A stretch of 32,000 nucleotides of DNA. Origin: Parasynechococcus marenigrum WH 8102. GTDB taxonomy: Bacteria > Cyanobacteriota > Cyanobacteriia > PCC-6307 > Cyanobiaceae. The notes under the pieces are model-generated. The model had not been told where the DNA came from. It saw only the letters and a list, made by a program, of their open reading frames with translations, and did no database searches. The stretch spans positions 330,001 through 362,000 of the forward strand of contig NC_005070.1 of NCBI RefSeq assembly GCF_000195975.1, given 5' to 3'. The position numbers and the translations under genes are program-made. Positions 8,974-28,626 of the stretch are shown piece after piece (the stretch's first letter is position 1; each line of letters begins with the position of its first letter).

Positions 8974-8975
8974 GG

Positions 8976-10857: not shown

Positions 10858-12033
10858 TCAACGGATCCCGTAGTTCAGCCAGCGGCAATCGATACCGCCA
10901 TTGCTCACGGGGATGCGACGGCTGGCCTTAAGCCGTAAGGCACCAGTGAGGGAAGCGTTGCCGCTGAGCAACCACAGCTGCCAGCCTGATGCTTGCTCGC
11001 GCACGAAGGATCCAAGCAATCGGTAGAGCTGTTCGAGATCGTCTTCGCTACCGACGCGGTGGCCGTAGGGCGGATTGCACACCAGCAGCCCTGGCCCTGG
11101 AGGGAGTGTCTGCTGCTCAAAGCTGCCGGAATGAATGGAGATCAGTCCGTCAAGACCGGCGGCTCGGATGTTGTCGCGGGCCTGATCTGCGATCAATGGA
11201 TCCTGCTCATATCCCACGACGGGGGCCAGATCAAGGTCGGAGCGACGGCGTTGGCGAGCCCTGGCGTGTTCGCGCTCCCAAAGCTCACGATCAAAGTCGG
11301 CCCAGCCTTCCAATCCGAACTGTCGACCGAGACCTGGAGCCTGTTGCAGGGCCATCGTGACGGCTTCGATCAACAGAATTCCGCTGCCACAGAAAGGGTC
11401 CACCAGCGGCATCCGACCATCCCAGCCCGTGAGTTGAATCAGCCCAGCAGCCAGGTTCTCCTTCAACGGTGCGGCTCCCATGGCAGCGCGGTAGCCCCGC
11501 CGGTGAAGGCTGACGCCACTGCCATCCAGGCTCAGGACCGCACCACCACGGTTCAGGTGGAGATGCAGAGCCAGGTCTGGATGAGCCAGGTCGATCGACG
11601 AACGCTCTCCCCAAAGCTCCCGTTGCAGATCCACCAGAGTATTCTTCACCTGCAGCGCGGAGTAGTGGCTGTGGTTCAACCCTGGCGCTGTTCCGGTCAC
11701 GTCCACTCGGAAGCTCATCGAGGGATGCAGCCACTGCTCCCAATTCAGCGCGTTGCTGATGCCGTCGTAAAGATCAGCCCGGCCCTGACAGGGAAAAACC
11801 GCCATCTCCCTCAGCAGGCGGAACGGCAGTCGAGCTTGTAGGTGCAGCCGATAGAGGCAGGCCATGTCGGCCTGAAACGCTGCTGCCCGGCGCAGGGGCT
11901 GGACTCCATGGGCCCCCAAAGCGACTAGTTCGTCGCAGCCCAGCGTTTCCAGCCCCTGGGGCAGCACCGCCACGCCATTGAGACGGTTCCCTCGACCCAA
12001 GACCGTTGTGCTCCAGGTCACCACTGCTGTCAC
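10858..12033 (-). CDS. THUMP-domain class I SAM-dependent RNA (RlmL/RlmK-like) methyltransferase
   Basis: The 391-aa ORF has an N-terminal THUMP-like region, SAM-binding DPFCGSGILLIEA and the catalytic LLVCNPPYG motif. Confidence 0.8.
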   Translation of the reverse strand: MTAVVTWSTTVLGRGNRLNGVAVLPQGLETLGCDELVALGAHGVQPLRRAAAFQADMACLYRLHLQARLPFRLLREMAVFPCQGRADLYDGISNALNWEQWLHPSMSFRVDVTGTAPGLNHSHYSALQVKNTLVDLQRELWGERSSIDLAHPDLALHLHLNRGGAVLSLDGSGVSLHRRGYRAAMGAAPLKENLAAGLIQLTGWDGRMPLVDPFCGSGILLIEAVTMALQQAPGLGRQFGLEGWADFDRELWEREHARARQRRRSDLDLAPVVGYEQDPLIADQARDNIRAAGLDGLISIHSGSFEQQTLPPGPGLLVCNPPYGHRVGSEDDLEQLYRLLGSFVREQASGWQLWLLSGNASLTGALRLKASRRIPVSNGGIDCRWLNYGIR

Positions 12034-12039
12034 AATGAC

Positions 12040-12324
12040 AGGGTCCGGTTCACCGGACTAGGTGATCCACACCAGTGTTTCGGACAGCGGTTCGATTCCG
12101 CTCAGCTCCATTCACCCTTCCACAAGGGGCTGCAATGGTTTCGACGGGGCATGAGGAGGGTGACTGAAGCCTGCTCGGTGAGAGCAAACCCGTAACTGCG
12201 AACAACATCGTTCGTTTCTCCCGTCACGCAGCCCCTGTTGCTGCCTGACCCTTAGGGGAGATGGGGTGAAGTCAGCCTTATCACCCAAATGACTCATGGG
12301 GGCTGGAAGGCCCCTCAAACCATT
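12040..12324 (+). ncRNA. ssrA: Two-piece (circularly permuted) tmRNA gene
   Basis: The T-arm GCGG-TTCGATT-CCGC and the acceptor 3' strand CAGCTCC plus A (12103-12110) lie UPSTREAM of the 5' end GGGGCTG (12126-12132). These pair as a 7-bp acceptor stem with the G3:U wobble. The tag ORF at 12198-12248 reads GCG AAC AAC ATC GTT CGT TTC TCC CGT CAC GCA GCC CCT GTT GCT GCC TGA, giving ANNIVRFSRHAAPVAA*. AATGGTTT (12134-12141) can pair with AAACCATT (12317-12324). The outer boundaries are approximate, within about 20 nt. Confidence 0.85.
12271..12324 (+). repeat. tmRNA-proximal att-like direct repeat (copy 1), equal to the 3' end of the tmRNA coding piece
   Basis: gtcagccttatcacccaaatgactcatgggggctggaaggcccctcaaaccatt matches 24550-24603 at about 46 of 54 positions by hand alignment. 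This includes a perfect 19-nt core, acccaaatgactcatgggg. Confidence 0.85.
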
Positions 12325-13314: not shown

Positions 13315-13929
13315 TCATCTGAGTGATTCGCAAGCTTCTCCATCACCGTCACCATCGAGGTATCGGTGTCCTTTAGTCAAGAGTTGTTGAGCGCGACTCC
13401 AGGAGCCAATGTCCTTGCAGCGGTATTTCCTACTGCTGCTGGAGTTGGTTATACTGCTCCCTCCTCCCTTGCGGTAGTCCCAAGGACGTGTGATTCCCGA
13501 TCGTCCGACAGACCAAATGCCAATACCCCGACGCTTCGCTTCATCCTCAATCCCCAAGTATTTCTGAGCATCGCATTTACGGAGATACTTCCTGTAAGCA
13601 AATGCTTGCCCAGCCCCCACCATCAGTTTGTTCACATTTCCTTGGTAGTTGATTAATTCAGCCACGACCCGCCCGTGCCGGTCTGTTGTCTGAACTCTCA
13701 GAGTGACTTGAGAGCCGATGGGAGTCAGCTGCTTCAGTAGTTCCGTTGATCTCGCTCCCCAGGGTTGTTGGGATCTCTCCGGCGCATCAATGCAAGCAAG
13801 GCGAACCGTAATTTTTTTGTTGCCTTCAGACACTCGTATAGTGTCGCCGTCCCCGACAGAAACCACAGTTGCAGCGTTCACGTTTGTCGTAAGGCAAGCT
13901 GCCAGCAGCAGTGCGGTGGCTGCTTTCAT
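13315..13929 (-). CDS. Secreted thermonuclease (SNase-like) with C-terminal Excalibur calcium-binding domain
   Basis: It has a signal peptide (MKAATALLLAACLTTNVNA), the SNase motif VVSVGDGDTIRV...VRLACIDAPE and RHGRVVAE. The C-terminal CKDIGSWSRAQQLL...DGDGDGEACE matches the Excalibur DxDxDGxxCE signature. Confidence 0.85.
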   Translation of the reverse strand: MKAATALLLAACLTTNVNAATVVSVGDGDTIRVSEGNKKITVRLACIDAPERSQQPWGARSTELLKQLTPIGSQVTLRVQTTDRHGRVVAELINYQGNVNKLMVGAGQAFAYRKYLRKCDAQKYLGIEDEAKRRGIGIWSVGRSGITRPWDYRKGGGSSITNSSSSRKYRCKDIGSWSRAQQLLTKGHRYLDGDGDGEACESLR

Positions 13930-15005: not shown

Positions 15006-15290
15006 ATGCATTGCTCTGCGGGCGATCTCACCCTGCCGCCGGGAACTGTGCTTGTCGGCGAGCTGGGTCTGGGCGGACAGCTCAGACCTGTCGGTCAGCT
15101 GGAGTTACGCCTGCAGGAGGCGGCGCGGCTCGGATTCCGGCGGGCAGTGGTGCCCCGCGGCAGCGGTCTGGGTGCCTTGGCCGCCGGCTTGATCTTGCCC
15201 TCTTGGAGGCCGATAGGGTCACCGAGGCCTTTTGTGCTGGCCCTCGGCGAGGACTTGACGGATCAGAAGTAGACGTGTAGGTTCGTGTCA
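15006..15290 (+). pseudogene. radA: 3'-terminal fragment of radA/sms (Lon-like C-terminal domain), frameshifted
   Basis: The translation TVLVGELGLGGQLRPVGQLELRLQEAARLGFRRAVVPRGSG matches the conserved RadA C-terminus (GEVGLxGEIRPV...RxxEAxKLGFxxAIVP). The expected tail LDLALLEADRVTEAF continues in another frame (ORF 14969..15280). No N-terminal 300+ aa is present. Confidence 0.7.
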
Positions 15291-15296
15291 TACCAA

Positions 15297-15362
15297 GCGG
15301 TTTGCCCATGTAAGTGGGTCGGAACAAACTCGGAACAGAGCCCGGAACGTGACACGGAACAG
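15297..15362 (+). repeat. GGAACA-rich direct repeat R1 (left flank of low-GC cassette)
   Basis: gcggtttgcccatgtaagtgggtcggaacaaactcggaacagagcccggaacgtgacacggaacag matches 16526-16591 at about 47 of 66 positions by hand. This includes the identical core tgggtcggaacaaac. It contains four GGAAC(A) copies spaced 10-13 bp apart. Confidence 0.75.
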
Positions 15363-15481: not shown

Positions 15482-16312
15482 ATGTTCTTCTTTCTATTTG
15501 CCCCTAAGTTTTCAGGCTCAACAGTGATGAGCCAAGTCATTGCAAACTCTGTTAACGGCTACTTACCGTCATTCACAAACAACGAAGGTCAAATGGTCCC
15601 TGCTGTCAAAAAAATCATCTTTGCTCAAGATCGCTGGGATCCAAACGTTGATTACAAGTGGGACCCGATCAAAAGCACATGGCTTTCACTACTTCATAAT
15701 TCGCAAAAAGATATTTTCATCGAAGCATCACCTCCAAATATCATGAGACTTGAGTCGATCAAGAGAAATTTTTCTGAAGACATGACAGGAGTAATCTCTA
15801 TTTCATCTCCGTACATGCAGATCACTTCAGCAATAAAAAAGAAATACCACAACATGGTTGAAAACAAAAAGTTGCGCTCGAGAGACCAGATTCCCGAGAA
15901 GTTGATTCGCAAAGCAACCAACAGCTGGGTCCTCATGGCCAAAGCACAACGCAACAATGTCAAGTCAAATCCATCCATGCCATTGGTGACGTATGAGCAG
16001 TTCTGCAAGAATCCCCAAAAACTAATCAAAGCTTTCTGCAATCAAGCACAGATTCAAACAAAAAGCTATAAACCACAAAAGATCGGCGGAAAAAAATTCA
16101 CAGGAATTACAGGAATCATGGACATGACATGCAAGAATCTTTCGTTCTTGTCGCTCAAGGAGATCGAAATATTAACAAGAAACCTCAAGCGTCACCGCAG
16201 TTTACTTCGCTTTTTCGGCTACCAATTGCTAACCACCCAAGACGTTACGGCGATGTACGAAAGACATATGCCTCTTGTAATTGATGGGATGCATTCCCGC
16301 TTGCATCGATAA
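15482..16312 (+). CDS. Sulfotransferase-like protein (low-GC cargo gene)
   Basis: The 276-aa AT-rich ORF begins FFLFAPKFSGSTVMSQ, resembling the sulfotransferase PAPS-binding loop (PKxGTT/ST). The function call rests on this motif only. Confidence 0.5.
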   Translation: MFFFLFAPKFSGSTVMSQVIANSVNGYLPSFTNNEGQMVPAVKKIIFAQDRWDPNVDYKWDPIKSTWLSLLHNSQKDIFIEASPPNIMRLESIKRNFSEDMTGVISISSPYMQITSAIKKKYHNMVENKKLRSRDQIPEKLIRKATNSWVLMAKAQRNNVKSNPSMPLVTYEQFCKNPQKLIKAFCNQAQIQTKSYKPQKIGGKKFTGITGIMDMTCKNLSFLSLKEIEILTRNLKRHRSLLRFFGYQLLTTQDVTAMYERHMPLVIDGMHSRLHR

Positions 16313-16348: not shown

Positions 16349-16525
16349 AAAAACAGAACAGCAGCCAAGTGAAATAATTCAGGCGGTGCGCAAGTTTCCC
16401 CTGAATTTCACGCTTTTATAATAAGTAAGTATTGCCTAAGCGTATCTCGTCAAATCGCGCTCTAAGACTCGATTCTTGGAAGTTACATTTGTCAGAAGTA
16501 GACATCAACGTTCTTGTCATCCTAA

Positions 16526-16591
16526 CGGGTTTGCTCTTGTGGATGGGTCGGAACAAACCTGGAACAGGGGTGTGCTCTGGACACGGAACAA
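16526..16591 (+). repeat. GGAACA-rich direct repeat R2 (right flank of low-GC cassette)
   Basis: cgggtttgctcttgtggatgggtcggaacaaacctggaacaggggtgtgctctggacacggaacaa is the partner of R1. Confidence 0.75.
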
Positions 16592-17897: not shown

Positions 17898-18713
17898 TTG
17901 ATGTCTGGTCAGTACCCACCAGGAAGCGAAGGATGGCGTGACGCTCTGGACTACCCGCCAGAAACCAGGGCAGATGTATCGGAAAATCGCCGCCGGTATC
18001 TCAAGGAGGCAAAAAAATTTCGAAAGGAAAGCGATGCTTGGGAGGAAGGAAGGATCGTTGGAGTTTTCGAAAGTCAGCTCTCTGATGGTGGTTCAACCTC
18101 TAAACAGTCCAAGGAGCCGACTCCTGAAGATGTTCGCTTGGCAAAAGAGCGAGCTGAGTTCAAGGAAATGATGCAGGCCAAGCGTGAGGCCAAGCAGGTA
18201 GCTCGCGCGGCGGATGAAAAAGCGGAGTTTCGCGAGTTCATGCGCGAATGGATAGCGACCAAGTGGGATGGTGAAACTCCTGATCACCTCAAAAAAGCAC
18301 TGCCCACAGGGGATCCAAAGGATCTCGGGATGCTCATCAGCGAATGGCACTCTTACGGCGGCAGGAAGAACAACCACGCCAGTGATGCCACTTTGACTCG
18401 GTATCTTTACTTCCCTCCCGCTGACCAGAGCCCAGTAGTAGACACGCCTCCAGCGGGGTTCGTTTACTTCGTCAGGAACGAGGATCTCTTCAAAATCGGG
18501 ATTACAGAAAACATGCTGCGGAGGCTGAAGCAACTTGCGCCGGATGAGCTTCTAAATGTCGTTCGCTGCTCCAACTTCCAGGAGGTCGAACGGGAGCTGC
18601 ATCGACGTTTCAAGGATGTTCGCTTGCCTCAAACGGAGTACTTCCGGCTGAGTGATCAGCAGGTGCAGGAGGTCCACCAACTCATGGTGAAGTTGGCGGA
18701 GTTCCAGTCGTAA
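17898..18713 (+). CDS. T5orf172/MUG113 (GIY-YIG-superfamily) domain protein
   Basis: The C-terminal GFVYFVRNEDLFKIGITENMLRRLKQL...ELHRRF...EYFRL matches the T5orf172 pattern (GxVYhh....hKIGxT....RhxxL...E..hH..F....EWF). The N-terminal half is charged and coiled. Confidence 0.7.
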   Translation: MMSGQYPPGSEGWRDALDYPPETRADVSENRRRYLKEAKKFRKESDAWEEGRIVGVFESQLSDGGSTSKQSKEPTPEDVRLAKERAEFKEMMQAKREAKQVARAADEKAEFREFMREWIATKWDGETPDHLKKALPTGDPKDLGMLISEWHSYGGRKNNHASDATLTRYLYFPPADQSPVVDTPPAGFVYFVRNEDLFKIGITENMLRRLKQLAPDELLNVVRCSNFQEVERELHRRFKDVRLPQTEYFRLSDQQVQEVHQLMVKLAEFQS

Positions 18714-18747
18714 CGGGAATTGCGTAATGAAAAAGCCCCAATATTTA

Positions 18748-18771
18748 CCGTGTTCCGGAACACGGTTTTTT
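18748..18771 (+). terminator. Rho-independent terminator
   Basis: The perfect palindrome ccgtgttcc/ggaacacgg is followed by tttttt, 35 nt after the stop of 17898..18713. Confidence 0.8.
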
Positions 18772-18886: not shown

Positions 18887-20005
18887 TTAATTTGCCGCCG
18901 GTGGAAGTGAGTTCAGCCCGCTATTAACTGCCTGCTCCAATCGTCTGGGGTTGTAAAGCGCCCCAACCGAATCGAACATCGCCAGCATCCTGGTGATCGC
19001 ATCAACATGGCCGGTGGCTTCTGAGCTGGCAGCTCTGTTTTCTGATTCCCACTGCTTGTGGCCGGAGTGGCTTAACCACTGCCACAGCTCATCACGTATC
19101 AATGAACGGGCAGCAGTTGGATTGGCGATCAGCGCATTGGCTTCTACCTTTCGCGGCCCGTACGTCTCCAGGTAGTCCTGCACATACGGGAACTTGCGGT
19201 GCTTGTGATTTGGGTTGGCCAAGTCACCACCACTGCTGGTTTCAAGACCGTCGATCCACACCAGACCGGCATTGTCCACAAACTCGGCGTTTAGCCCAAA
19301 GCGCACGATTCGACCGTCGTCAGCCATGTCTTCCAGGGAATCGTCCCAGTTCAGAACCTTGGCCAATGGCCTCAGGTTTTCAGCGATTGCGTCGGACATC
19401 TTGACCCCCATCGGATCAAGGTCGCCGCAATAAAGAACCACCGGTTCCAGTCCCTGCAACTCGGCCCAATCACATTCCTGAATCAGCGCCACCCTGCTGT
19501 TCACGTCAGCCTGGCCTTTGCTGGCAAAACGGCGGATTGCGTTGGGCAATTCCGGCTCGAACAGCTTGATCAGGTCACGTTTTTCAGTCCAGATGATCGG
19601 GAAGTACTCCTGATGCTTCCAGTAGCTGGCAGGCCAGTAATGCTTGGCTTGATCCAGCGATTCCCGCAGCTGACGGTTGATGTATTCCCGCGGGGTTTCT
19701 TCTTTGTCGTAGACGTCAGAACCAGACAGAGCACGGGTTGAATCCGCACCGACAAGTTCAAACGGAATCAGCCCTTCTTTGCGGCGATCAGCAAGCCACT
19801 TACCAGACCAAGTGAAATCGCCTTTAGTGATGATGCCTTCTGATTCCAGGGCATACAGCCAGGAGCGAGCAACAGGAGCAAAACCGAGACGCGCAACGTA
19901 TTGGCGCATCCAAGCCACTACTTCATGCATATCTGCATGAAATTGCAGTCTTTTGGCTTCACTAATCCTGCCGCTGCCCATTCGGGGTAGTGCGGTGATG
20001 ATCAC
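18887..20005 (-). CDS. Topo-VI-A/Spo11-like Toprim protein (stand-alone, mini-A or JetD-like)
   Basis: The 372-aa ORF has IIWTEKRDLIKLF (Toprim Glu, cf. vVEKdavF), VLYCGDLDPMGVKM (DxDPxG metal site) and KVEANAL (cf. ElEAL). The N-terminal ARSWLYALESEG offers a candidate RxxxY catalytic Tyr in a winged-helix-like segment. Confidence 0.55.
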   Translation of the reverse strand: MIITALPRMGSGRISEAKRLQFHADMHEVVAWMRQYVARLGFAPVARSWLYALESEGIITKGDFTWSGKWLADRRKEGLIPFELVGADSTRALSGSDVYDKEETPREYINRQLRESLDQAKHYWPASYWKHQEYFPIIWTEKRDLIKLFEPELPNAIRRFASKGQADVNSRVALIQECDWAELQGLEPVVLYCGDLDPMGVKMSDAIAENLRPLAKVLNWDDSLEDMADDGRIVRFGLNAEFVDNAGLVWIDGLETSSGGDLANPNHKHRKFPYVQDYLETYGPRKVEANALIANPTAARSLIRDELWQWLSHSGHKQWESENRAASSEATGHVDAITRMLAMFDSVGALYNPRRLEQAVNSGLNSLPPAAN

Positions 20006-20101: not shown

Positions 20102-22072
20102 TTAGTCCGGGCGACTCGGGTTCCAGAAGGCCCTAACCCACTTGCCGGTGCCGATGCGGCGTTGGTCATAGAGCCACCCGTGATGGGTCATCAACTCCCG
20201 GATGCGTTGGGCGTTGAAGTTGTTCTGGCGTTCCGGACCGATCTCCAGGAAGTCGTAGATCTGCTGGCGCTGGACGTAAGCCGCAGTGCCCTGGCGTTTA
20301 AGCCAGTCGCCGATCAGATCCGACCACGGGTCCACGAGGTCGTAGTCGCTGTTCCTGGTGAGGATGCGATCCATCTCCTCATCGGTGCTCCACGTCTGGA
20401 GACCGTTCTGGAACTCCCGCAGTGCCTTGGTCCAGATGGCGTCTCTGGCTTCGGCGATCCGCTGAACGGGCAGCTTTTCGTCACCGACGGGGATCATCAC
20501 GAACCTGGTGGAGCCGGTGTTGTCCGTCAGCGGCGACTTGTTCGTCGTCGCGAAGAACACGGACCGCCGGTGGATCGGTTCAGTGCCTGGGGCGTACTTA
20601 CGGCGCACTAAGTCCACCCGCCTACTCAGGAAGGCTTTGAGCTTTTCCTGTTGAGTCCGGCGGGTGATGCCGTTCAGCTCGCCCAGCTCCATGCCCCACA
20701 CGAACTGGAGTCGGGTCACGTCGTCGATGTCCAGCGCGGAGGAAAGTCCGTCGCCGTAGAACTCGTGGCCGAACAGGCTCCTGCCTGCCTCCGTCTTCCC
20801 GATCCCCTGGCCGCCAAGAATGCACGGGGTCTGACGTTGCTGGCAGCCGGGGACTTTGACCCTGGCCACGGCGCTGGTCAGATACCGAGGCATGAATGCG
20901 TCGGCGATGGGGTCGTCGACGTTGAACAGGAAGCGACCCAGATGATTCCAGTCCTCATCAGGCAGGGGGTCCGCCGAGAGGTTGGACAGGTAGACATCCA
21001 CGGGATCGAACTGATGCTCGTGAGCCAGCTCAATAAACGCATCGCGAGCGATCTTCTGGCTCCACCGGTTGGGGCTCGGTGGCATCGACAGGCGGAGGTA
21101 GAGGTTCTCCGTCTGGGTCGCCGTGGCCTCTGCACCGTTGATGTGGATGCCGCGGCTTCGCAGGTTCAGTCGGGGTACATCGCCCAGCTGCTCAGCCATC
21201 AATTTGAGGGCGTCGCCTGCCTGGACTTTCTTTTGACGTAAATCCTGTTGCTCCACATGGATCCGGAACACCGCGGCGTTGCCAACGGCTGTCTCGCGAT
21301 CACCGCAGTAGGCCCAGGTGACCCCTCCCTTAACGACCGTCTCGCCCTTGGCCATCACCGGTGGCGACCAACGCTTGCCGTAGTGGCAGAGGATCACCTT
21401 CCCGTCGGCGGATTGGCGGCAATCAGGTTCTGTGCGCCCACAGATCGGGCAAGGGATGGCGTCATGCCAATCCCCGACCTGTTTATGGGATCGCCTGTTT
21501 TCCGTCTTGGCCATGGCCTTTTGCCATAACGCCCACCAGTCATCGGGGATGGGGGCGATCCGCTCCGGATTGCGCTGGGTCCAGACGTATTCGCCGCCAG
21601 ATTGGCGGTGCTCGCCGGCAACGATGCACTGGCCTGTGGACCAGAAGATCTCGACCTTCTCGTTCCCGTCGGCCTTCACCTCGCATTTGCCTGGAAGGTG
21701 TTCCCACCGTTCCTTTGGCACTCTGAAGAAGAGCTTGTAGCGGTTGGAATCGGTATTCCGACCAACCATCCAGGTGACCGGCTGGTGCTCGATCCCCATC
21801 CTGATCAGCTCGCTGATGGCACTGAGCCCATCGATGTCGAAGCAGACGATGCCGCCTGCGTCAGGGCCTAGGCGTGTGCCGACACACAGGACCTTTGGTC
21901 CCATTGCCGCGATCTCATCGGGAGTGAACGACATGTGTTGCCAGCCCTTCGCACCGAAGCCAGTGGAGGGATCAATGGGCGCCTTGAACTTTTCCCCTGC
22001 ACCACAGGGGATGAGAGGGAGGCCAGTGAGCTGCGGGAGCAGCTTCTGCCTCCAGTTGCTGACTGGTTTCAT
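20102..22072 (-). CDS. Bifunctional primase-polymerase (prim-pol) / zinc ribbon / VirE-D5-type P-loop helicase
   Basis: The 656-aa ORF has the N-terminal prim-pol pattern LPLIPCGAGEKFKAP...GWQ...VGTRLG...IVCFDIDG. Its central part is CPICGRTEPDCRQSADGKVILCHYG. Its C-terminal part has Walker A GGQGIGKTE and WGMELGEL, typical of VirE-family ATPases. Confidence 0.85.
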   Translation of the reverse strand: MKPVSNWRQKLLPQLTGLPLIPCGAGEKFKAPIDPSTGFGAKGWQHMSFTPDEIAAMGPKVLCVGTRLGPDAGGIVCFDIDGLSAISELIRMGIEHQPVTWMVGRNTDSNRYKLFFRVPKERWEHLPGKCEVKADGNEKVEIFWSTGQCIVAGEHRQSGGEYVWTQRNPERIAPIPDDWWALWQKAMAKTENRRSHKQVGDWHDAIPCPICGRTEPDCRQSADGKVILCHYGKRWSPPVMAKGETVVKGGVTWAYCGDRETAVGNAAVFRIHVEQQDLRQKKVQAGDALKLMAEQLGDVPRLNLRSRGIHINGAEATATQTENLYLRLSMPPSPNRWSQKIARDAFIELAHEHQFDPVDVYLSNLSADPLPDEDWNHLGRFLFNVDDPIADAFMPRYLTSAVARVKVPGCQQRQTPCILGGQGIGKTEAGRSLFGHEFYGDGLSSALDIDDVTRLQFVWGMELGELNGITRRTQQEKLKAFLSRRVDLVRRKYAPGTEPIHRRSVFFATTNKSPLTDNTGSTRFVMIPVGDEKLPVQRIAEARDAIWTKALREFQNGLQTWSTDEEMDRILTRNSDYDLVDPWSDLIGDWLKRQGTAAYVQRQQIYDFLEIGPERQNNFNAQRIRELMTHHGWLYDQRRIGTGKWVRAFWNPSRPD

Positions 22073-22088: not shown

Positions 22089-22352
22089 TCAAACCGTCAG
22101 CGGCGCGGTGTCTCTGCCGAAGGTTTCAACCTCCGCCGAAGACTCCCGCTTGTGGTTCCACAGGCTTTGGATTGCCTGCTCCTTGTTCCATCTGACCTTG
22201 CGAGTGCCGAGGCCGATGAACTGCCAATCCCGGTGCTGTTGGAAAGGACCGTTGGGGTCCCGCCGCATCCGAAGAATTGTCTCTGGACTGAGCTGAGCCG
22301 CCTGGGCGACTTCAGCGGTTGTGGACGCAATTTCCATTTCGAGGGCACGCAC
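22089..22352 (-). CDS. Small HTH protein, excisionase/AlpA-like regulator
   Basis: It has the HTH TTAEVAQAAQLSPETILRM and the start may be ATG at 22337. It is clearly homologous to 31316..31528 in element 2 (shared ..DW......R..L.WN.E.A......W.........VETF). It sits immediately upstream of the primase gene. Confidence 0.55.
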   Translation of the reverse strand: MRALEMEIASTTAEVAQAAQLSPETILRMRRDPNGPFQQHRDWQFIGLGTRKVRWNKEQAIQSLWNHKRESSAEVETFGRDTAPLTV

Positions 22353-22354
22353 CC

Positions 22355-22615
22355 TCAGGTGCGCGGGGTGCCATCCCAGTTCTCATGGTGCAGAAGTTCC
22401 GCCTGGAGCTTGGCCATGAAGTTGGCCTTTTTGTCCCGGCGTCCCTGATCAGGATTGCCTTTGTCAAGCGTTCCAATAGAGAAGCCCTCGTCTAGTCGCA
22501 CCCGCGCGCGGGTGAAATAGCGAACAAGACGTTCCAGGTGCTGACGTTCATGACCCTCAGGCCAATGAGTCAAGCGACCAGGACGAATCGGAATTGGGCG
22601 ATCAGGACCTTGCAT
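22355..22615 (-). CDS. Hypothetical protein
   Basis: Met-36 version of tracked ORF 22355..22720. Its stop lies 2 nt from the start of the next gene, consistent with an operon. Confidence 0.35.
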   Translation of the reverse strand: MQGPDRPIPIRPGRLTHWPEGHERQHLERLVRYFTRARVRLDEGFSIGTLDKGNPDQGRRDKKANFMAKLQAELLHHENWDGTPRT

Positions 22616-22812
22616 CCAGCAGGGATGACGTGTTCGGTTTGATCCCCCGGAGGCAGACGCGCTGCTGCTGTTCCGACATCTCGAAGGCAACGTAACACCA
22701 CTGATCGGGATCGTCAGCAAATTTCCCCACCGATGCCACTACGGATGGTGTCAGCAGCTGGAAGTGTCTAGAGCAGTTGGGAGAGGTTGCAAGGATTGAA
22801 TAAATCTATGCC

Positions 22813-22862: not shown

Positions 22863-22915
22863 TTAGGCCGCTTATTGGTCTAGTGTTGTGGCTGAAAATT
22901 GCCTGGCCACATCAA

Positions 22916-23086
22916 ATGTCTACAGCAATCAAATGTGCATGCCCTAAGTGCACCTGTATGGTCGCAGAAGAGAGCGCAATTGTTCTTCAAGGTAAGTTCT
23001 TTTGCTCGACGTCCTGTTCAACAGGGCATGCCAATAATGAGCCCTGTCATGGCGAAGGCTCTTGTGGATGTAAGTGCGGAGAGTAA
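22916..23086 (+). CDS. bmtA: Bacterial metallothionein (SmtA/BmtA family)
   Basis: The 56-aa protein is MSTAIKCACPKCTCMVAEESAIVLQGKFFCSTSCSTGHANNEPCHGEGSCGCKCGE. Its Cys/His spacing follows SmtA (KCACxxCxCxV....AI...G..yCS..C..GH......C......C.C). Confidence 0.85.
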   Translation: MSTAIKCACPKCTCMVAEESAIVLQGKFFCSTSCSTGHANNEPCHGEGSCGCKCGE

Positions 23087-23144: not shown

Positions 23145-24425
23145 TCAGGGCAGCGGGATCGTGCCGGTCTTGGCGGCGAAGTCGCGGGTCCTCATCCCCA
23201 GGGTCATGGTCCGATAGCTGTGCGAGTGCACCGCTTCGCTGTGGCCCATCGCGTCGCAGATCGACGCCACCGGCACTCCCTCTCGGTGGCAGCGGATCGA
23301 GTAGGTGTCCCGAAAGCTGTAGGGCCGCAACCACTCGCTCGGATCCTGTTTGTCGTAGTGCTCCACCAGCTCTGCCCAATAGATCTGAACCGCACCGCTG
23401 GGCTTGCCTGTCGATCGTGACTTCCGGTGGATGTAGCAGTTCACCGCGCTCCCAGAGAGCTTGCGGACATCACCATCCCTGCCGGTGGGCAGCTGCAAGG
23501 TTCCGTCGGCCATCGCCTGCTCCAGGGGCCACACCACCGGCTGATCGTTGCCGTCGCGGATGTACATCGCTTCCAGGAAGCGGGGATCGGTTTCCTCTTC
23601 ACCGCCGGTCTTCCTGTAATTGCACCAGATGGCTGGCTTGCCGGTCACCGGGTTGACTCGGCTGCTCAGATGCTGAAGCTCGATGGGTCTTAAACCAAAT
23701 TGCGTCAATAGTCGGAACACGTTGCCCCACCTGACGTTTACCGAGTCGGCCAGCTCAATCAGGCGCAGCATCTCTAGGTCGTCCAGCACCGCTTTAAGCC
23801 TCGGCTTCGGTGCCTTGGGGATCAGCTCGTCCTTGTCGAACTCGGTGATCAGCCAGCTCGCTGGGGCCTTGTGCCGGGACACCGCGAACTGCATAAACAG
23901 GCCGAGGTAGCGGCCGCACTCCACCTTCATCGTGGGAGCCCCTTCCCAGTTCTTCAGAGCCTCCTTCAACAGGCCATAGCCGTCGTGGGCCTTGCCGGTG
24001 TTGATGAGCCTCACGGCGTAGTCGATGAATGGCCGCCAGTTCTTCCGGAAGGTGTGGGCGCTGCACTTCTGCGACTGCTGCACCCGGGACGCCTCCATTG
24101 CGTCTGCGATTTGTGCCCATGTTTTGGCCTTCTCCTCTCCTTGGAGATCGCTTGTGTCGTGAGCGTCGGCGACTGCTGCCTTCAGCGTTTTCTCGCCGTT
24201 GTCCCACGCCTTGTAGACCGCCTCAATCCACCGGATGGCGTTGCGGTGGTGCACCTCATCCCAGGTGTTGGGCCGCGGCAAGTAGGCGGTCTCTGCGGGG
24301 CGGCCACGCTTCCTGACGCGCAGCACGATCCGGTCGCGGACGCGGGAGATGCTCCAGCCGTTCCAAGGCTCAGTTGTCTCGACCAGGCGCTGTTCCCACC
24401 GGGGGCGCGAGTCATCCGGAGCCAA
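23145..24425 (-). CDS. int: Tyrosine site-specific recombinase (integrase)
   Basis: The 426-aa ORF has the C-terminal catalytic region LRPIELQHL...(R), YSFRDTYSIRC (HxxR-type box), and DAMGHSEAVHSHSYR (H...Y). The annotated start is TTG and is not certain. Confidence 0.9.
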   Translation of the reverse strand: MAPDDSRPRWEQRLVETTEPWNGWSISRVRDRIVLRVRKRGRPAETAYLPRPNTWDEVHHRNAIRWIEAVYKAWDNGEKTLKAAVADAHDTSDLQGEEKAKTWAQIADAMEASRVQQSQKCSAHTFRKNWRPFIDYAVRLINTGKAHDGYGLLKEALKNWEGAPTMKVECGRYLGLFMQFAVSRHKAPASWLITEFDKDELIPKAPKPRLKAVLDDLEMLRLIELADSVNVRWGNVFRLLTQFGLRPIELQHLSSRVNPVTGKPAIWCNYRKTGGEEETDPRFLEAMYIRDGNDQPVVWPLEQAMADGTLQLPTGRDGDVRKLSGSAVNCYIHRKSRSTGKPSGAVQIYWAELVEHYDKQDPSEWLRPYSFRDTYSIRCHREGVPVASICDAMGHSEAVHSHSYRTMTLGMRTRDFAAKTGTIPLP

Positions 24426-24453: not shown

Positions 24454-24549
24454 AGATCCTATTCAGTCGTTCTCTGTCGTCAAGGGTTGCCAACAGACCA
24501 GGGCTCTGACTATGTTCTGCCCGTGATCGTTGTTTCCGTAAGGAAAGCA

Positions 24550-24603
24550 GTCAGTTGTATTACCCAAATGACTCATGGGGCCTGGAAGGGCCCTTCAACC
24601 ATT
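24550..24603 (+). repeat. Distal att-like direct repeat (copy 2): an orphan copy of the tmRNA 3' end
   Basis: gtcagttgtattacccaaatgactcatggggcctggaagggcccttcaaccatt is the partner of 12271-12324. No tmRNA body lies upstream of it. Confidence 0.85.
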
Positions 24604-24891
24604 GCCAATACTTGAGTCACGGATGCGACTAGGCCGAGATTTTGGAGCTGCGACCCAGGGTGTGACCCGAAGGTCGTCGTTTTAGGGCTAAGTGACCCAT
24701 GCGGGGTCACAGAGGACTGCTGCGGAAACCTGCTGAATCTTGGAGAAGTTGGTAGAAGTCAAGTGAGCACAAGGGTAGAAGCCTTTCTTTTGTTATTGCA
24801 AGACAATAAAATAAGGGCGGTGCATCACTCCGCCCCTAGGAATCACCAACATCTATAGATGAGAGATCTGCTCCTTTAGTTTAGTTCAACG

Positions 24892-25059
24892 ATGCCTAAA
24901 CGTACACTTCCTGTCTATGTGGAAATGGTGCTTTCTCAAATACTGCAAGAGTCAGCATTAGAGAAGCAATCAATTGATGATGATTGTCCCTCAGTCCCGC
25001 AGGGCTGCCCTCTTTCCACCCCCCAAAGCCGTCTTACTGCAGTTGAGGTTAACCAATGA
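24892..25059 (+). CDS. Hypothetical small protein (55 aa, not in ORF track)
   Basis: The ATG at 24892 opens MPKRTLPVYVEMVLSQILQES.... Its TGA overlaps the ATG of the next ORF (ATGA at 25056-25059), suggesting translational coupling. Confidence 0.35.
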   Translation: MPKRTLPVYVEMVLSQILQESALEKQSIDDDCPSVPQGCPLSTPQSRLTAVEVNQ

Positions 25060-25454
25060 TTGATTTAGATCAGGCCATTGATCAGTCCTATCGAGAAGCA
25101 TCTGATGCTGAGGCTGTTGCCCGGCGCTTAGAAGCCAGGATTGAGCAGATTCCAGGTGCACAAGGGTTGCTCCCCCGCAGAAAATATGGAACGCCCGTGA
25201 ACTTCAAGGCGATCCAAGAAAATCTCACCTTGGCCTCGTTGATTACACAGGCTGATGCAGCACTAGCGAACTACTGCGGGCTGGATGCCTCGGTGAAGCG
25301 CCGCATGGATGAAGAGAGGGAGGCTCAAAAGCTTCGTGTTGAGGCTTTGAGGATGCGCACAGAGTGCCTGAGGGAGGCCAACGAACGTGCTGCCAAGACT
25401 CGCGAGCAGCAGCTCGTCAGTGGCATCAACCCCATGACTGGGAGGTACTTCTGA
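25056..25454 (+). CDS. Hypothetical coiled-coil protein
   Basis: 132-aa ORF. It is coupled to both neighbours by overlapping stop and start codons. Confidence 0.5.
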   Translation: MIDLDQAIDQSYREASDAEAVARRLEARIEQIPGAQGLLPRRKYGTPVNFKAIQENLTLASLITQADAALANYCGLDASVKRRMDEEREAQKLRVEALRMRTECLREANERAAKTREQQLVSGINPMTGRYF

Positions 25455-25801
25455 TGCTTGCTCGGCCGCACCCTTGCCTTGGTTGGCTCCATTGCCAACC
25501 ACAGGACAGCAGACGACTTCTCGATCGACAGCTAACCCATCGCGATCATGTGCTGGAGGCTGACCCAAGCTTCAGCGGTATGCCAGCGAGCTTCGTTGAG
25601 GAGACCTGGGTCGACTGGTTGCCGAAGGCTGTCGCTCAACCCTTCTACAGAGACCAGCTCACCGCCCATGTTGCAGAGCTGGAACGCCAAATCTCCAACC
25701 TCAGCCGGGAGATTGAACTGCAGTCCGGCGGCCTGCTCGATCAACGAGATGCAGCTGTGGATCTCAGGCAACGTCTCAAGCATCTGCTGGAGACCTCATA
25801 A
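25454..25801 (+). CDS. Hypothetical protein
   Basis: Met-31 version (MLARPHP...) of tracked ORF 25364..25801. Its ATG overlaps the upstream TGA (TGATG). Confidence 0.45.
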   Translation: MLARPHPCLGWLHCQPQDSRRLLDRQLTHRDHVLEADPSFSGMPASFVEETWVDWLPKAVAQPFYRDQLTAHVAELERQISNLSREIELQSGGLLDQRDAAVDLRQRLKHLLETS

Positions 25802-25840
25802 CCCTGGTCAACCATCAGTTTCCAGACGCACCCGATACCG

Positions 25841-26032
25841 ATGCCAAACATTCTTGATCACGTCTCACAAGCACCAGTCCTTGAAATAGACGTCTGGCCA
25901 CGCTCAGCAACACGCAAAGAATGGTTCGCCATCACGCGACGCATTATTCAAGACACCATCGCTGACATGAACCTCGATCCTGCTGCTGAAGCAGAAATGA
26001 TCGATGCCTTTACTGGTGCTGGGCTGCTGTGA
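25841..26032 (+). CDS. Hypothetical small protein
   Basis: 63-aa ORF, last in the co-directional cluster. Confidence 0.35.
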   Translation: MPNILDHVSQAPVLEIDVWPRSATRKEWFAITRRIIQDTIADMNLDPAAEAEMIDAFTGAGLL

Positions 26033-26380
26033 CAGTCCGCTGGTGACTCCTTACGCGTAACGGCCCTGTCCTGTTCAAGCGGTGGCTGTATGGCGGCATC
26101 CAAGACCTAGGAAAACCAGCAGTGACGGAGCTGCTGCTGGATTGTATTGACCCGTTCATTTGTTAAGTTGAGCGGGACAGGATGGTGGCGTGGCACCTAG
26201 GCGTGAGCTTCTAGTTTGAAGCGGCATTGAACCACGCGCATCCAGCATTTGGGGGAGAAGAAGCCCTTATATTGATTGATATATCACTCAGTAATTGATG
26301 AGCCAAGATGAGCTAGGTATCACTTAATGCAATTCTTAGATTAATGGAATGCTATTCTTAGTTTATCGCTATACAAGTCA

Positions 26381-27640
26381 ATGGCAATTTTAGCATGGGA
26401 AGACATTTCAGGGGACAAATTTATTCATACATTCGATTTACATCGAAAAATTCCTAATGCAAAAAATCCTGAACCTGATTGCCCGGTTGAAATAGAAGCG
26501 TCGGAGTCTAATAAAAATGCGGCTGGTTATATATCATTTATCGGCGATAGTTTGTTGGATATGGTAGATCCCTCGGCTTTGGAGTCCAATTTGTACGGTT
26601 CACCTAGATCGTACGGTGGTGACACTGCCAGTAATTGTTCAATCCAAATGCAATTAATGGGTAAAGGTTATGACATTGGCGAAAATGCAGCCAAGGGCAG
26701 TGCTGTGATTGGCCAAGCCGCGGTGGACTGGGCGTTGAGTTCGGAGGGACTATCACTAGCAAATATTAGCGACCTATATGATACATTAAAAAATAGCTTA
26801 TCAGATGATAAATTTGACACACTAATGATTTCAGGTGGTATAGGAAATGTACTTAATATCCCGGATGGCGAGAATCCGGTCGACTGGTCGAATCAGGCTG
26901 CGGATCAGATGGAGAGCCTCATAAATTCAATATTAGCGGATAACCTTTGGAGTAAAATCGTAATAGTAGGATATGCAATAAGTGCAACACATCCACGCAA
27001 TTTTATACAAATACTCCACAATAAATTTAGTTACTTAGCTGAAAATAATAGTAAAGTAGAATTTATTAATACCGATTATCTTTATGACCAACGTGCTGGT
27101 GGCGATGCAGTTTTGCGTGAATCATTATTCGGTGGTGATGGAAATCACGGTGGTGTTGAAGGACACAGGCTTGTAGTAGAGAGCTTTGATACTTTGCAGG
27201 GGCTGCAACTAAAACCCGCACCAGAGCCAGAGGAATACGACAGCATCATTGAATCGGTTCTTGGCAAGGGCAAATTAAAAGGAACGACGGGTGCAGATGC
27301 CTTCACTTTTGATTCCTTTGAAGCATTCACAAAGAAATCTGCTGATAAGATCATTGGATTTAATGCGTCGCAAGGAGACACAATTGCTGTCGGTCCCAAT
27401 GCGTTCCCTTCCTTGCAAGGTGTCTCCGATATCAGCTTTGCATCGACTAGGAGCAAGAAGGAATTCAAGCAAATGTCCAAGGAGGATTACGACTTTGTAT
27501 ATTTTGAGAAGAAAGGTCGCCTCTACTTCGATGGAAATGGCGCAGAGAAGAACTGGGGCAACAGTAGTGAGGGAGGTCTTGTGGCAATCCTGAAAGGAAA
27601 GCCTGAGCTAACTGCTGAAGACATAACACTGTTGGCTTGA
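26381..27640 (+). CDS. GDSL/SGNH-family hydrolase with RTX-like (T1SS-type) C-terminal region
   Basis: The 419-aa AT-rich ORF has SGNH block I FIGDSLLD, block III-like GGIGNV and block V DGNH. The C-terminus (GTTGADAFTFDS...DKIIGFNASQGDTIAV...GRLYFDGNG...LVAILKGKPELTAEDITLL) follows the pattern seen at the ends of RTX/T1SS substrates. Confidence 0.6.
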   Translation: MAILAWEDISGDKFIHTFDLHRKIPNAKNPEPDCPVEIEASESNKNAAGYISFIGDSLLDMVDPSALESNLYGSPRSYGGDTASNCSIQMQLMGKGYDIGENAAKGSAVIGQAAVDWALSSEGLSLANISDLYDTLKNSLSDDKFDTLMISGGIGNVLNIPDGENPVDWSNQAADQMESLINSILADNLWSKIVIVGYAISATHPRNFIQILHNKFSYLAENNSKVEFINTDYLYDQRAGGDAVLRESLFGGDGNHGGVEGHRLVVESFDTLQGLQLKPAPEPEEYDSIIESVLGKGKLKGTTGADAFTFDSFEAFTKKSADKIIGFNASQGDTIAVGPNAFPSLQGVSDISFASTRSKKEFKQMSKEDYDFVYFEKKGRLYFDGNGAEKNWGNSSEGGLVAILKGKPELTAEDITLLA

Positions 27641-27663
27641 CAAAGCTTTAACGCTGAACACCA

Positions 27664-28044
27664 ATGGCAATCACCACCAGAGCACAACGACAACAACGCC
27701 GTAACGAGGCTCTACAGCTGATTAGCAGTGGTGTCCCGCCAACTGACGCTGCGTCTCAGTTGACTGTGAAGTGGGGGTGCAGCAGGCGAACGAGTCTGCG
27801 TGACATAGAAATCGCGCAGAGTGAACTAGCGAACGCCTTGGACTCGGTTGAGCTTCAGCAGATGGTGGGTTGGTTGGCGACGCAATATCAACGTCTAGCC
27901 GCCAAAGCTGAACGCGATGGTCAGTATTCAGCAGCCGTTGGTGCTCTGAATGCGTTGAGAGCAATGGTTGTGCAGCCACAACTGGATGCGCAGTTTGCTG
28001 CTCACTTCCGTGGCCGGTTTACGCACCATTCCTACCGGCGGTGA
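27664..28044 (+). CDS. HTH DNA-binding protein, TerS-like architecture (counterpart of 14450..14815)
   Basis: The 126-aa ORF has ASQLTVKWGCSRRTSLRDIEIA (HTH) and a later helix YSAAVGALNALRAMVV. It is alignable by eye with the element-1 protein. Confidence 0.5.
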   Translation: MAITTRAQRQQRRNEALQLISSGVPPTDAASQLTVKWGCSRRTSLRDIEIAQSELANALDSVELQQMVGWLATQYQRLAAKAERDGQYSAAVGALNALRAMVVQPQLDAQFAAHFRGRFTHHSYRR

Positions 28045-28375
28045 TATGGCAATCTTCGGGGCTTGCTCAATGCCCCATGGATTACAAGGATTTTTGCCTC
28101 ACCTGTCTGGTTACGTTGGCGGCCATCAACACGGTGCTGAATGTGCGCGCTCTTCGAAGACGCTGAGCTGCGGCAAAGGAGCAAAGGCCAGTTTGTCAGT
28201 GCCACTCCGATCTCACTGGCCGGTTGAGTCTCAAGATTGCTGGACTCGATTTGGACGTGATGGAGGTTGTCTCGTCGCATCCCATTCCCGTCTCAGTCGC
28301 CGGGACCCCTGGCCCCGCAGGGCCGGAGTCTCAACGGATCAGCTGGACTGTCCTGCGTCACTGTGTTTGTGGCCG

Positions 28376-28537
28376 TTACGCAGCACTGTCTCCCATCAGT
28401 TCTGAAACGCTGGGCATCGGGTCTGGCTTGCCATCGGCAATGGCTCGAGCGCGGAGGTAGAACCAGCTTTCCGTGTCGCCCTTGGCTTCCATGCTTTCGG
28501 CGATGGTCTGCCAGTTGTTGATTTCGGCTTGGTCCAT
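28376..28537 (-). CDS. Hypothetical small protein (53 aa, not in ORF track)
   Basis: MDQAEINNWQTIAESMEAKGDTESWFYLRARAIADGKPDPMPSVSELMGDSAA has a natural-looking composition, unlike the overlapping Arg-rich tracked ORFs. It lies downstream of the RepA-like gene on the same strand. Confidence 0.3.
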   Translation of the reverse strand: MDQAEINNWQTIAESMEAKGDTESWFYLRARAIADGKPDPMPSVSELMGDSAA

Positions 28538-28626
28538 AGGGGGTGAGTCTTTGAAAAGATCCCCGGGCTCTCACCTCCGGGGACTGTTGTACGTCTTCTC
28601 GCAGCTCCGCAAGAGACGGCAGAAAA

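Follow-up and report, generated by a model that had tools for sequence, protein, structure and literature searches.

A putative long-type Topo mini-A gene next to a primase-helicase in a tycheposon-like element at the tmRNA gene of a marine Synechococcus

The window analyzed here is a 32,000-nt (32-kb) stretch of DNA from Parasynechococcus marenigrum WH 8102 (NC_005070.1, positions 330,001 to 362,000 of the forward strand), and our subject is one of its minus-strand genes, whose 372-residue product is a relative of the DNA-cleaving half of type IIB topoisomerases. A preliminary description of the sequence had placed the open reading frame (ORF) at 18887..20005, which is exactly where we find it, with a GTG start, and had picked out the stretches TEKRDLIKLF, GDLDPMG, and VEANAL along with an N-terminal ARSWLY, all of which are present and colinear. 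The GTG start is supported, as the N-terminal LPxxGxGR of the protein is kept in homologues, and the ORF is a real, widely conserved gene. Running from the N-terminus, the protein is predicted to consist of a 5Y-CAP-like part, a Toprim domain, a T2BI box, and C-terminal helices. The gene and its motifs are given below, with residue conservation counted across 216 full-length family members.

18887..20005, minus strand: putative 'long' Topo mini-A-type gene, GTG start, 372 residues (ORF call, PHROG 6247, hhalign, AlphaFold2).
19853..19867, minus strand: R47-S-W-L-Y51, the candidate catalytic tyrosine with its upstream arginine (RxxxY); Y51 in 216/216, R47 in 214/216.
19574..19585, minus strand: E141-K-R-D144, the Toprim acidic residue at the end of strand b1; E141 in 216/216.
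19406..19426, minus strand: G194-D-L-D-P-M-G200, the Toprim DxD metal-binding motif; D195, D197, and G200 in 216/216.
19130..19150, minus strand: K286-V-E-A-N-A-L292, a T2BI-type box, (R/K)xExx(A/S); K286 in 216/216, E288 in 215/216.

Numbered along the protein, the four colinear motifs are A46-RSWLY51, T140-EKRDLIKLF149, G194-DLDPMG200, and V287-EANAL292. Y51, K61, E141, G164, D195, D197, G200, and K286 are invariant among the full-length relatives (216/216), E288 and R47 are missing from only one and two of them, respectively, and the glutamate three positions after the tyrosine (E54, in the context RSWLY-ALE) is retained in 215 of the 216. The caveat in the preliminary description that the tyrosine might vary among homologues thus falls away. 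The T2BI box, as defined in PMC7671362, reads RKVEANAL in our protein, with K286, E288, N290, and A291 conserved, and in Top6A the residues of this box touch the tyrosine and arginine across the dimer (PMC7671362). Each motif has a counterpart in Mini-A and Top6A: R47-S-W-L-Y51 pairs with RQLYY of Mini-A and, in a relaxed profile alignment, with STLRELYY of Top6A; the E141 region aligns with VEKxAL and IE(T)GG; G194-DLDPMG200 with GDHDPSG and TDGDP; and K286-VEANAL292 with SWELDAL and KAEQQAL. The four motifs are far more than chance. Moreover, inteins occur in two homologues, one exactly before CGDHDP (P0287) and the other before the conserved (S/K)KGW (P0297), a placement typical of catalytically important sites in replication proteins. 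The P0287 intein begins with CIPENE and ends with THN directly before CGDHDP, and that of P0297 has a LAGLIDADG domain and sits directly before SKGW.

Searches with the protein returned many relatives and few names. In a set of 5.8 billion proteins there are 444 homologues at E ≤ 1e-3, every one of them 'hypothetical' and without a Pfam domain. A family profile built from 35 members and searched against a 50%-identity library (1.84 billion representatives) matches 4515 clusters at E ≤ 1e-3, 1798 at 1e-10, and 370 at 1e-30, and members of the family occur in several archaeal lineages as well as in many bacterial phyla. Scanning the protein with Pfam, NCBIfam, and PADLOC produced no usable match (DUF3146, at E 0.044, is noise); neither TP6A_N nor TOP6A-Spo11_Toprim of Pfam scored at E ≤ 1, and the Pfam Toprim, Toprim_2/3/4, DUF4435, DnaG, and OLD families did not match it. 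Single-sequence and profile searches of the protein data bank (PDB) brought up spurious matches only (p18 and a lectin). The PHROGs database, on the other hand, places the protein over nearly its full length in phrog_6247, 'DNA topoisomerase' (E 6.4e-33). Using tblastn against phage genomes, we found proteins of 33–34% identity in the Cellulophaga phi38:2 group and in Chryseobacterium phage MA9V-3, together with a weakly matching Elizabethkingia phage 'DNA topoisomerase' that groups with Pseudomonas phage NP1 gp49 and with proteins of Chi-like Salmonella phages and a Listeria phage. Relatives are also encoded on 36 IMG/VR viral contigs.

Two independent AlphaFold2 models of the protein are of high confidence (pLDDT 91.0 and 90.2, pTM 0.80–0.81). 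In both, E141 ends Toprim strand b1 (residues 134–140) and the DxD follows directly after strand b3 (187–193), positions that in these predicted folds correspond to the canonical Toprim layout. A Foldseek search of the PDB returned Top6A as the top or highest-probability match, though a weak one, with a probability of 0.96 for Methanosarcina mazei Top6A using the second model (E 0.07) and 0.89 using the first, and against the PDB and BFVD no match reached E ≤ 0.001.

The closest kinship is with Topo mini-A (hereafter Mini-A). Our alignment of canonical Mini-A comprises seven proteins (NP1 gp49, BP12C, LWP01, HCIV-1, Pam3, RDJL2, and TCUEAP2) and displays the signatures LTxRQLYYQL, VEKxAL, GDHDPSG, and SWELDAL; Takahashi et al. 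(PMC7671362) use NP1 gp49 and the Chi-like Salmonella and Listeria phage proteins as their reference 'Topo mini-A'. In hhalign, the family matches this alignment with a probability of 99.8% (E 1.3e-29, 263 columns, 21% identity), and the tyrosine, glutamate, DxD, and C-terminal glutamate boxes are in register. A plasmid-database search likewise found a homologue on Asgard element 10H_0 (LC711081), 33% identical over 84% of the query (E 4e-39), which is deposited as 'Topo mini-A' (BDI55083; Medvedeva et al.); later authors have counted the long subtype within that group. The mini-A-like reading of the preliminary description is supported on both counts.

Beyond Mini-A, the relationship extends in steps. 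Canonical Mini-A matches the A-half of classical Topo VIII (pPPM1a and pMPPla107) with a probability of 89% (E 2.3e-6), and this A-half in turn matches Top6A plus Spo11 at 95.6% (E 1.2e-8). Taken directly, the family profile is not significantly similar either to the classical Topo VIII A-half (E 0.04–0.09) or to Top6A/Spo11 (58 archaeal Top6A sequences, with or without yeast Spo11; E 0.12–0.46), and even in the latter alignment the DxD and KVEANAL/KAEQQAL boxes coincide. A broad profile, which combines 222 Mini-A sequences of the long and canonical kinds, reaches E 2.7e-4 against Top6A, Spo11, and Topo VIII-A together, and its relaxed alignment pairs SSRGWCY with STLRELYY, VEK with IE(T), GDhDP with TDgDP, and RKvEANAL with KKaEQQA. 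Since the direct match to Top6A/Spo11 is only marginal, the type IIB assignment rests on the chain from Mini-A to Topo VIII. The profile and structure comparison proposed in the preliminary description therefore comes out strong toward Mini-A and marginal toward Top6A/Spo11 itself (hhalign as above, Foldseek E 0.07). A different Toprim class, such as OLD or DnaG, had been raised there as the outcome that would count against it; a DnaG-type control (two Toprim_3 primases) gave an hhalign E of 0.35 over 25 columns lying outside the catalytic motifs, and the Pfam Toprim and PADLOC JetD/OLD models were negative. Altogether, it is to Mini-A and to the A-half of Topo VIII-like fusions that the protein is most closely related, and less so to Topo VI/Spo11; the protein itself is a stand-alone relative of the type IIB DNA-cleavage half that comes without the GHKL ATPase half.

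Compared with canonical Mini-A (NP1 gp49, Salmonella BP12C gp28, and Listeria LWP01), the protein is likewise stand-alone, without a B subunit, and encoded by a mobile element or virus, and it shares the colinear RxxxY, VEKxxL, GDxDPxG, and C-terminal xxExxAL boxes. The features by which Mini-A is recognized are found here: the conserved arginine and tyrosine with the Toprim glutamate and DxDxxG (in the 216-sequence conservation), and an origin in an integrated mobile element (tmRNA repeats and an integrase, with homologues in phages and islands). In contrast, the canonical proteins are of about 300 residues (372 here), the identity is about 21%, and RQLYY and xWELDAL stand where the long group has RSWLY/RGWCY and KVEANAL. 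Our protein also adds an N-terminal LPxxGxGR tail, a long C-terminal helical extension, and an insertion of 30–40 residues (WIDGLETSSG...HxxH...YVQ) ahead of the T2BI box. The Asgard 10H_0 protein is of the same long subtype (SARGWCYLLE, VEKIDV, GDFDPAG, RKVEANAI, and an N-terminal LPVSRKGRRS), solo and borne on a mobile element, but its host is archaeal, the element is an 84-kb circle, and its annotated neighbourhood has no adjacent primase-helicase.

With Topo VIII (Gadelle et al. 2014; Takahashi et al. 2020; for instance Paenibacillus polymyxa pPPM1a WP_014600290 and P. amygdali pMPPla107 WP_005742844), the protein has in common a type IIB character, an exclusive association with mobile elements, and an xVExNAx T2BI box (RVELNAM compared with KVEANAL). 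The signatures of the Topo VIII A-half are RxxY/F/M-Y, an arginine three positions after the tyrosine, and RVELNAM (PMC7671362), with RQLYY, R-P at Y+3/+4, and HDADAAG in the classical enzymes, whereas our protein lacks the N-terminal GHKL/transducer half and has RSWLY-ALE and KVEANAL instead. Topo VI-A and Spo11 (PDB ID: 1D3Y, 2Q2E, 9O7O, and 8URQ) resemble it in their predicted chemistry and in the order of the motifs (R...Y, Toprim glutamate, DxD, and (K/R)xExxA at the dimer interface), but there is no B partner, no Pfam match, and no significant direct match of the family to TP6A_N, to the Toprim model, or to a solved structure, the exception being the broad superfamily profile (E 2.7e-4). 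Finally, JetD/MksG of Wadjet is also a Toprim protein of Top6A lineage that acts without a GHKL ATPase; what sets our family apart is the invariant tyrosine, which points to transesterification, not hydrolysis.

The protein belongs to a distinct 'long' sub-clade of about 340–380 residues, sister to canonical phage Mini-A, from which it splits with 100% bootstrap in a neighbour-joining tree (bootstrap on Poisson distances). The motifs of this sub-clade are RGWCY/RSWLY, VEKxD, GDxDPxG, and RKVEANAL, and by the motifs of Takahashi et al. the protein is neither canonical Mini-A (xWELDAL) nor Topo VIII (RVELNAM, arginine at Y+3). Among the best matches of the family profile are proteins of 730–890 residues (for instance from Bradyrhizobium sp. 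URHD0069 and from a Desulfobacterium metagenome-assembled genome), whose N-terminal half is a GHKL ATPase (HATPase_c; N-box KELxDNALD, DxGxG, and RGALGNxL). This B-half is 34–42% identical to the Topo VIII B-half of pPPM1a, pMPPla107, and pBASL58 (E 1e-58 to 1e-83), and the C-terminal halves (RGWCYxLE, VEKIDL, GDHDPxG, and RKxEANAL) are about 31% identical and match the family profile at E 1e-127 to 1e-77. In the tree, the fusions fall into at least four small, well-supported groups interspersed with solo forms, and our protein sits within a clade of solo proteins that has 100% support. The tyrosine motifs of published Topo VIII (PMC7671362) are RxxY/FY in 59 cases, RxxMY in 18, and HxxY/FY in five, 82 in total; because these tallies leave no place for RxxCY, the GHKL fusions apparently fall outside the published set. 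A further observation concerns the sequence LPxxxRGRxS (residues 5–16, about 19958–19993), which is conserved in the solo proteins and is found at the B–A junction of the fused P0246 and P0247; it may have been kept as a linker or DNA-binding element when the B-half was lost.

The element that hosts the gene is 12.3 kb long, tycheposon-like, and integrated at the tmRNA gene of this marine Synechococcus. In order along the window, its features are as follows.

12027..12314, plus strand: cyanobacterial (permuted) tmRNA gene, the integration target (Rfam cyano_tmRNA, 315 bits; ARAGORN).
12270..12324, plus strand: proximal att repeat at the 3' end of the tmRNA gene, a 55-nt direct repeat 85% identical to 24549-24603.
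17898-18713, plus strand: 271-residue protein with a C-terminal T5orf172/MUG113 (GIY-YIG-like) domain (PADLOC candidate PDC-S57, 2e-9).
18747..18766, no strand assigned: GC-rich hairpin separating the convergent genes for mini-A and T5orf172, resembling a terminator on the plus strand (sequence scan).
20102..22072, minus strand: PrimPol plus VapE/VirE-like primase-helicase of superfamily 3 (SF3) (Pfam Prim-Pol 5.9e-11, VapE-like_dom 1.3e-45; PHROG DNA helicase/primase).
22089..22352, minus strand: small helix-turn-helix (HTH) protein, excisionase/regulator-like, 16 bp upstream of the primase-helicase (weak HTH_17 and Sigma70_r3, E about 0.1).
22355..22720, minus strand: 121-residue ORF heading the leftward string (ORF call; no Pfam match).
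22883-23086, plus strand: metallothionein, SmtA-type (Pfam Metallothio_Pro, E 2e-12).
23145..24425, minus strand: 426-residue tyrosine recombinase (integrase), inward-facing (weak Phage_integrase 4e-4, XerA 1e-4).
24549..24603, plus strand: distal att repeat (55 nt), the displaced tmRNA 3' remnant, just outside the integrase gene.

No third copy of the 55-nt repeat is present in the window. The two att copies differ, among other places, by a compensatory G/C swap that keeps the terminal hairpin (GGGGGC..GCCCC versus GGGGCC..GGCCC), as is expected if one copy arrived with the element, and over the element interval the GC content falls from about 63% to 44–55%. Tycheposons, as defined by Hackl et al., are matched in the tmRNA target with its partial repeat, the inward-facing tyrosine recombinase, the adjacent replication module, and the cargo (a staphylococcal nuclease, the metallothionein, and ORFs without known function), and tycheposon-like insertions in Synechococcus have been described as having the integrase at the distal end with a tRNA remnant after it (PMC8995045). 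We also considered whether the tycheposon hallmark 'top' might be the mini-A gene and rejected this, as the 'top' profile is Topoisom_I, a type IB topoisomerase. Within the element, the mini-A gene is the last of a leftward string, HTH – PrimPol/VapE – mini-A, in which the primase-helicase is immediately upstream on the same strand with a gap of 96 bp, and a promoter-like site is found upstream of the string at 22849-22820. The operon-like position with replication genes that the preliminary description had noted is thereby borne out. Between the replication string and the integrase, the metallothionein is likely a metal-homeostasis cargo.

A few other observations concern the rest of the element and what lies beyond. 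In its cargo part, 13315-13929 (minus strand) encodes a staphylococcal-nuclease homologue with an Excalibur calcium-binding domain and a hydrophobic N-terminus that, judged by eye, is signal-peptide-like. The ORF at 15006-15272 (plus strand, 88 residues) is similar to the Lon/ChlI-like domain at the C-terminus of RadA/ComM (Pfam ChlI, E 2.6e-4) and may be a host-gene fragment carried in the island or a remnant of another integration site. Imperfect 99-nt direct repeats (15263-15361 and 16492-16590; 75% identity, 1229 bp apart) flank a low-GC (44%) ORF of 276 residues without a Pfam match (15482-16312), which looks like a small cassette inserted within the island. Past the distal att, the region 24604-31000 is atypical in GC (44–47% at 26–28 kb) and has several ORFs without a Pfam match as well as a 523-residue AAA_25 (RepA/DnaB-like) protein (28627-30198, minus strand); no further tmRNA repeat lies there, and the region may be the remnant of a second mobile element.

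In other genomes, the family keeps similar company. The closest homologues are those of Synechococcus sp. WH 8017 (82% identity) and AG-679-A04 (84%), where tRNA-Arg(TCT) or tRNA-Thr(CGT), together with an integrase related to that of the window (28–29% identical), lies upstream of the gene, and where it is paired with a helicase other than the one here, D5_N in WH 8017. All loci that we examined in detail have the mini-A gene in a mobile-element replication or DNA-metabolism module. Observed gene orders are integrase – HTH_17 – x – mini-A – Toprim_3 primase – DUF3631 helicase; integrase – AlpA – x – mini-A, followed by phage head genes; integrase – mini-A – DUF6011 – PolB/D5; and, in Cellulophaga phages, mini-A – x – VirE, with a further locus having an AAA_25 helicase beside mini-A. 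HTH_17 or AlpA genes hold the position corresponding to that of our small HTH gene. Ten further adjacent large ORFs comprise three primase-helicases (PriCT_2+DUF3987, DnaB_C, and Toprim_3+DUF927), an SNF2 helicase, a DUF6371 protein with a zinc ribbon, two restriction-modification genes, and three without known function. Among the two largest neighbours at each of 48 loci, what recurs are diverse replicative helicases, terminases, portals, and capsids, with Phage_integrase in 11 of the 96 ORFs and hence at 11 loci at most. Some neighbours are thus restriction-modification genes or ORFs without known function. The survey of co-occurrence with prim-pol/VirE genes suggested in the preliminary description proves too narrow as a specific link, for the association is with replication modules generally and the helicase family varies. 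Separately, we noticed that the long and canonical Mini-A genes of several phages (Cellulophaga phi38:2, Chryseobacterium MA9V-3, Pseudomonas NP1 of the Queuovirinae, and Salmonella BP12C) lie among genes of 7-deazaguanine/queuosine type (folE, queE, queF, and tRNA-ribosyltransferase-like and PAPS-reductase-like genes); this proximity could be a coincidence within DNA-metabolism modules or a functional link.

To look for a partner ATPase, we used a B-half hidden Markov model (HMM) built from eight Topo VIII-type GHKL halves. Run against the six-frame ORFs of the 32-kb window, it found nothing, in agreement with the earlier statement that no B subunit is nearby, and HATPase_c of Pfam matched none of the island ORFs scanned. 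When the window and the first 18 loci were taken together, the sole matches of the HMM were the two classical Topo VIII genes. In a wider set of 80 related genome loci, it found B only as part of a fused gene (5/80, one of them frameshifted) and none in the other 75, and a separate neighbouring B gene was never found among them. Unannotated neighbours examined as a possible 'Mini-B', among them gp63 of Cellulophaga phi38:2 and the 413-residue gene that follows the Xanthobacteraceae homologue, had no B-half HMM match either.

The absence of JetABC partners, also claimed at the outset, holds for what was scanned: PADLOC gave no Wadjet match for the mini-A, PrimPol-VapE, and T5orf172 proteins, the remaining ORFs of the window not having been run against JetA/B/C models. 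The only SMC gene of the window (4952-8563, minus strand, 1203 residues, SMC_N plus hinge) is in high-GC flanking host DNA, with a PRC-barrel gene (3893-4915) as its low-coordinate neighbour and, on its other side, ORFs 8614-9039 and 8976-9962, which have no Pfam match or were not scanned. We rejected it as a Wadjet JetC, as it has a hinge, lies outside the att repeats, and has as its sole Pfam-matching neighbour the PRC-barrel gene, not JetA or JetB. We read it as the housekeeping Smc (condensin subunit), unrelated to the island.

On balance, we lean toward the protein being a Topo mini-A-type enzyme that breaks and rejoins DNA by Mg2+/tyrosine chemistry in the service of element replication. 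The conserved tyrosine and arginine, Toprim triad, and T2BI lysine and glutamate argue for a Top6A-like, Mg2+-dependent tyrosine breakage-rejoining reaction, probably by a dimer, and the constant placement with primase-helicases and integrase/excisionase genes argues for service to replication of the excised circle. In this scheme, the integrase would excise the element, and the mini-A protein, probably as a homodimer, would then act on its circular DNA. The acidic cluster of the Toprim domain (E141, D195, and D197) would bind Mg2+, and Tyr51, placed by Arg47 and Glu288, would attack the backbone and form a transient 5'-phosphotyrosyl link. Such ATP-independent breakage and rejoining might support replication driven by the primase-helicase through torsional relief, through unlinking of daughter circles, or through a defined nick that primes rolling-circle copying. 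Dimerization, cleavage chemistry, substrate, and biological role are all inferred. The preliminary description had proposed replication initiation, decatenation, or excision of the circular form as roles, and of these, excision is a task for which the element already has its integrase and HTH genes. Its remark that orphan mini-A proteins are barely characterized agrees with the literature, in which we found no characterized Mini-A protein.

Three points weigh against a replication-serving Mini-A enzyme. Top6A needs its B subunit to cleave DNA; the direct hhalign comparison with Top6A/Spo11, as given above, is not significant; and the signature xWELDAL and the length of about 300 residues that Takahashi et al. 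give for Mini-A differ from the RKVEANAL and 372 residues here. Four other explanations are rated below it. The one that survives best, which we nonetheless regard as unlikely, is that of a replication initiator, a sequence-specific nickase whose Tyr51 cuts one strand at the origin for rolling-circle (sigma) replication in the manner of an HUH Rep, with the primase-helicase as replicative helicase and lagging-strand primase. Just such a rolling-circle role was proposed by Medvedeva et al. (bioRxiv 10.1101/2021.07.29.453957) for skuldviruses, in which Topo mini-A is the sole replication-type gene, and the 8.8-kb Asgard element 7H_11 has a mini-A and no other annotated replication gene. The predicted tyrosine/Mg2+ chemistry would fit as well, and the position right after int/xis matches that of initiators. 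Yet the window and most loci also have a self-initiating SF3 or DnaB-type primase-helicase, and no iterons or origin-like repeats were found by the gene in a search for direct repeats (12-nt seed, at least 18 nt), inverted repeats not being included. Moreover, type IIB A subunits act as dimers that cut both strands, and this family conserves the T2BI residues of the dimer interface.

We give less credence to a split type IIB topoisomerase, in which the protein would be the A subunit of an ATP-dependent, Topo VIII-like decatenase whose GHKL B-half is encoded elsewhere, by the host or another element. In its favour, close relatives are B–A fusions with intact N, G1, and G2 ATP-binding boxes, and the N-terminal LPxxxRGRxS of the solo proteins is the B–A linker of those fusions. 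Set against this are the B-half HMM results, null in the window and in the 80 loci positive for fused genes only, never for a separate one, and the placement of the protein in a 100%-supported clade made up solely of solo forms.

Similarly improbable is a nuclease for defence or competition, that is, a Spo11/JetD-like breaker of the DNA of infecting phages or rival elements and not a participant in the replication of its own. The convergent T5orf172/MUG113 neighbour does match PADLOC candidate PDC-S57 (2e-9), the adjacent large gene is a restriction-modification enzyme in two related loci, and tycheposons can be PICI-like phage parasites (Hackl et al.). On the opposite side, PADLOC was null for the protein itself, and its homologues are found on the 36 IMG/VR contigs and, within DNA-metabolism modules, in phages of lytic type (for instance Chryseobacterium MA9V-3 and the Cellulophaga phi38:2 group); in addition, the catalytic tyrosine is invariant in the family, and JetD-type nucleases do not require one. 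As for a different Toprim class (a DnaG-like primase, an OLD/PARIS-type nuclease, or a RecR-like protein) that resembles type IIB motifs by chance, the lack of a Pfam type IIB model at E ≤ 1 and the non-significant direct Top6A hhalign would allow it, but we consider it highly improbable given that Pfam Toprim, DnaG, and OLD do not score, PADLOC is negative, the Toprim_3 control (E 0.35, 25 columns) is off the motifs, the chain from Mini-A via Topo VIII-A to Top6A is strong, relatives are fused to GHKL, and Top6A is the best Foldseek match in the PDB.

Returning to the Mini-A assignment, a more tentative proposal, which we hold to be possible but doubtful, concerns the long clade as a whole. 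It might be the A-module of an unrecognized Topo VIII-like branch that has repeatedly gained and shed GHKL, its solo proteins serving tRNA/tmRNA-integrating elements and phages as autonomous, ATP-independent DNA-gate or nicking enzymes. This is suggested by the polyphyly of the fusions among solo forms and by a tyrosine box (RGWCY, with glutamate at Y+3) that lies outside the published classes. If true, the long clade would add a new functional class to the type IIB-derived enzymes and would show the assembly of A and B halves in progress.

At the least, the protein is a further member of the Topo mini-A group, known since 2019–2020 and uncharacterized. Of the three branches that make up the type IIB topoisomerase/Spo11 superfamily, this group alone has no known activity, and an A subunit that works without an ATPase bears on the control of Spo11 and on the origins of type IIB enzymes. 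To what was known of the group, our survey adds a distinct long sub-clade, an A-domain that this sub-clade shares with GHKL-fused Topo VIII-like proteins, and the embedding of mini-A in replication modules whose helicase family is interchangeable. The locus is moreover compact and tractable, being a 12-kb element with defined ends and a replication string of three genes in a cultivable group of marine cyanobacteria, and together with the fusion data it makes Mini-A function more testable. The analysis also gives an annotation to a conserved gene that had no name in tycheposon-like islands, elements with a shaping influence on the ecology of ocean picocyanobacteria.

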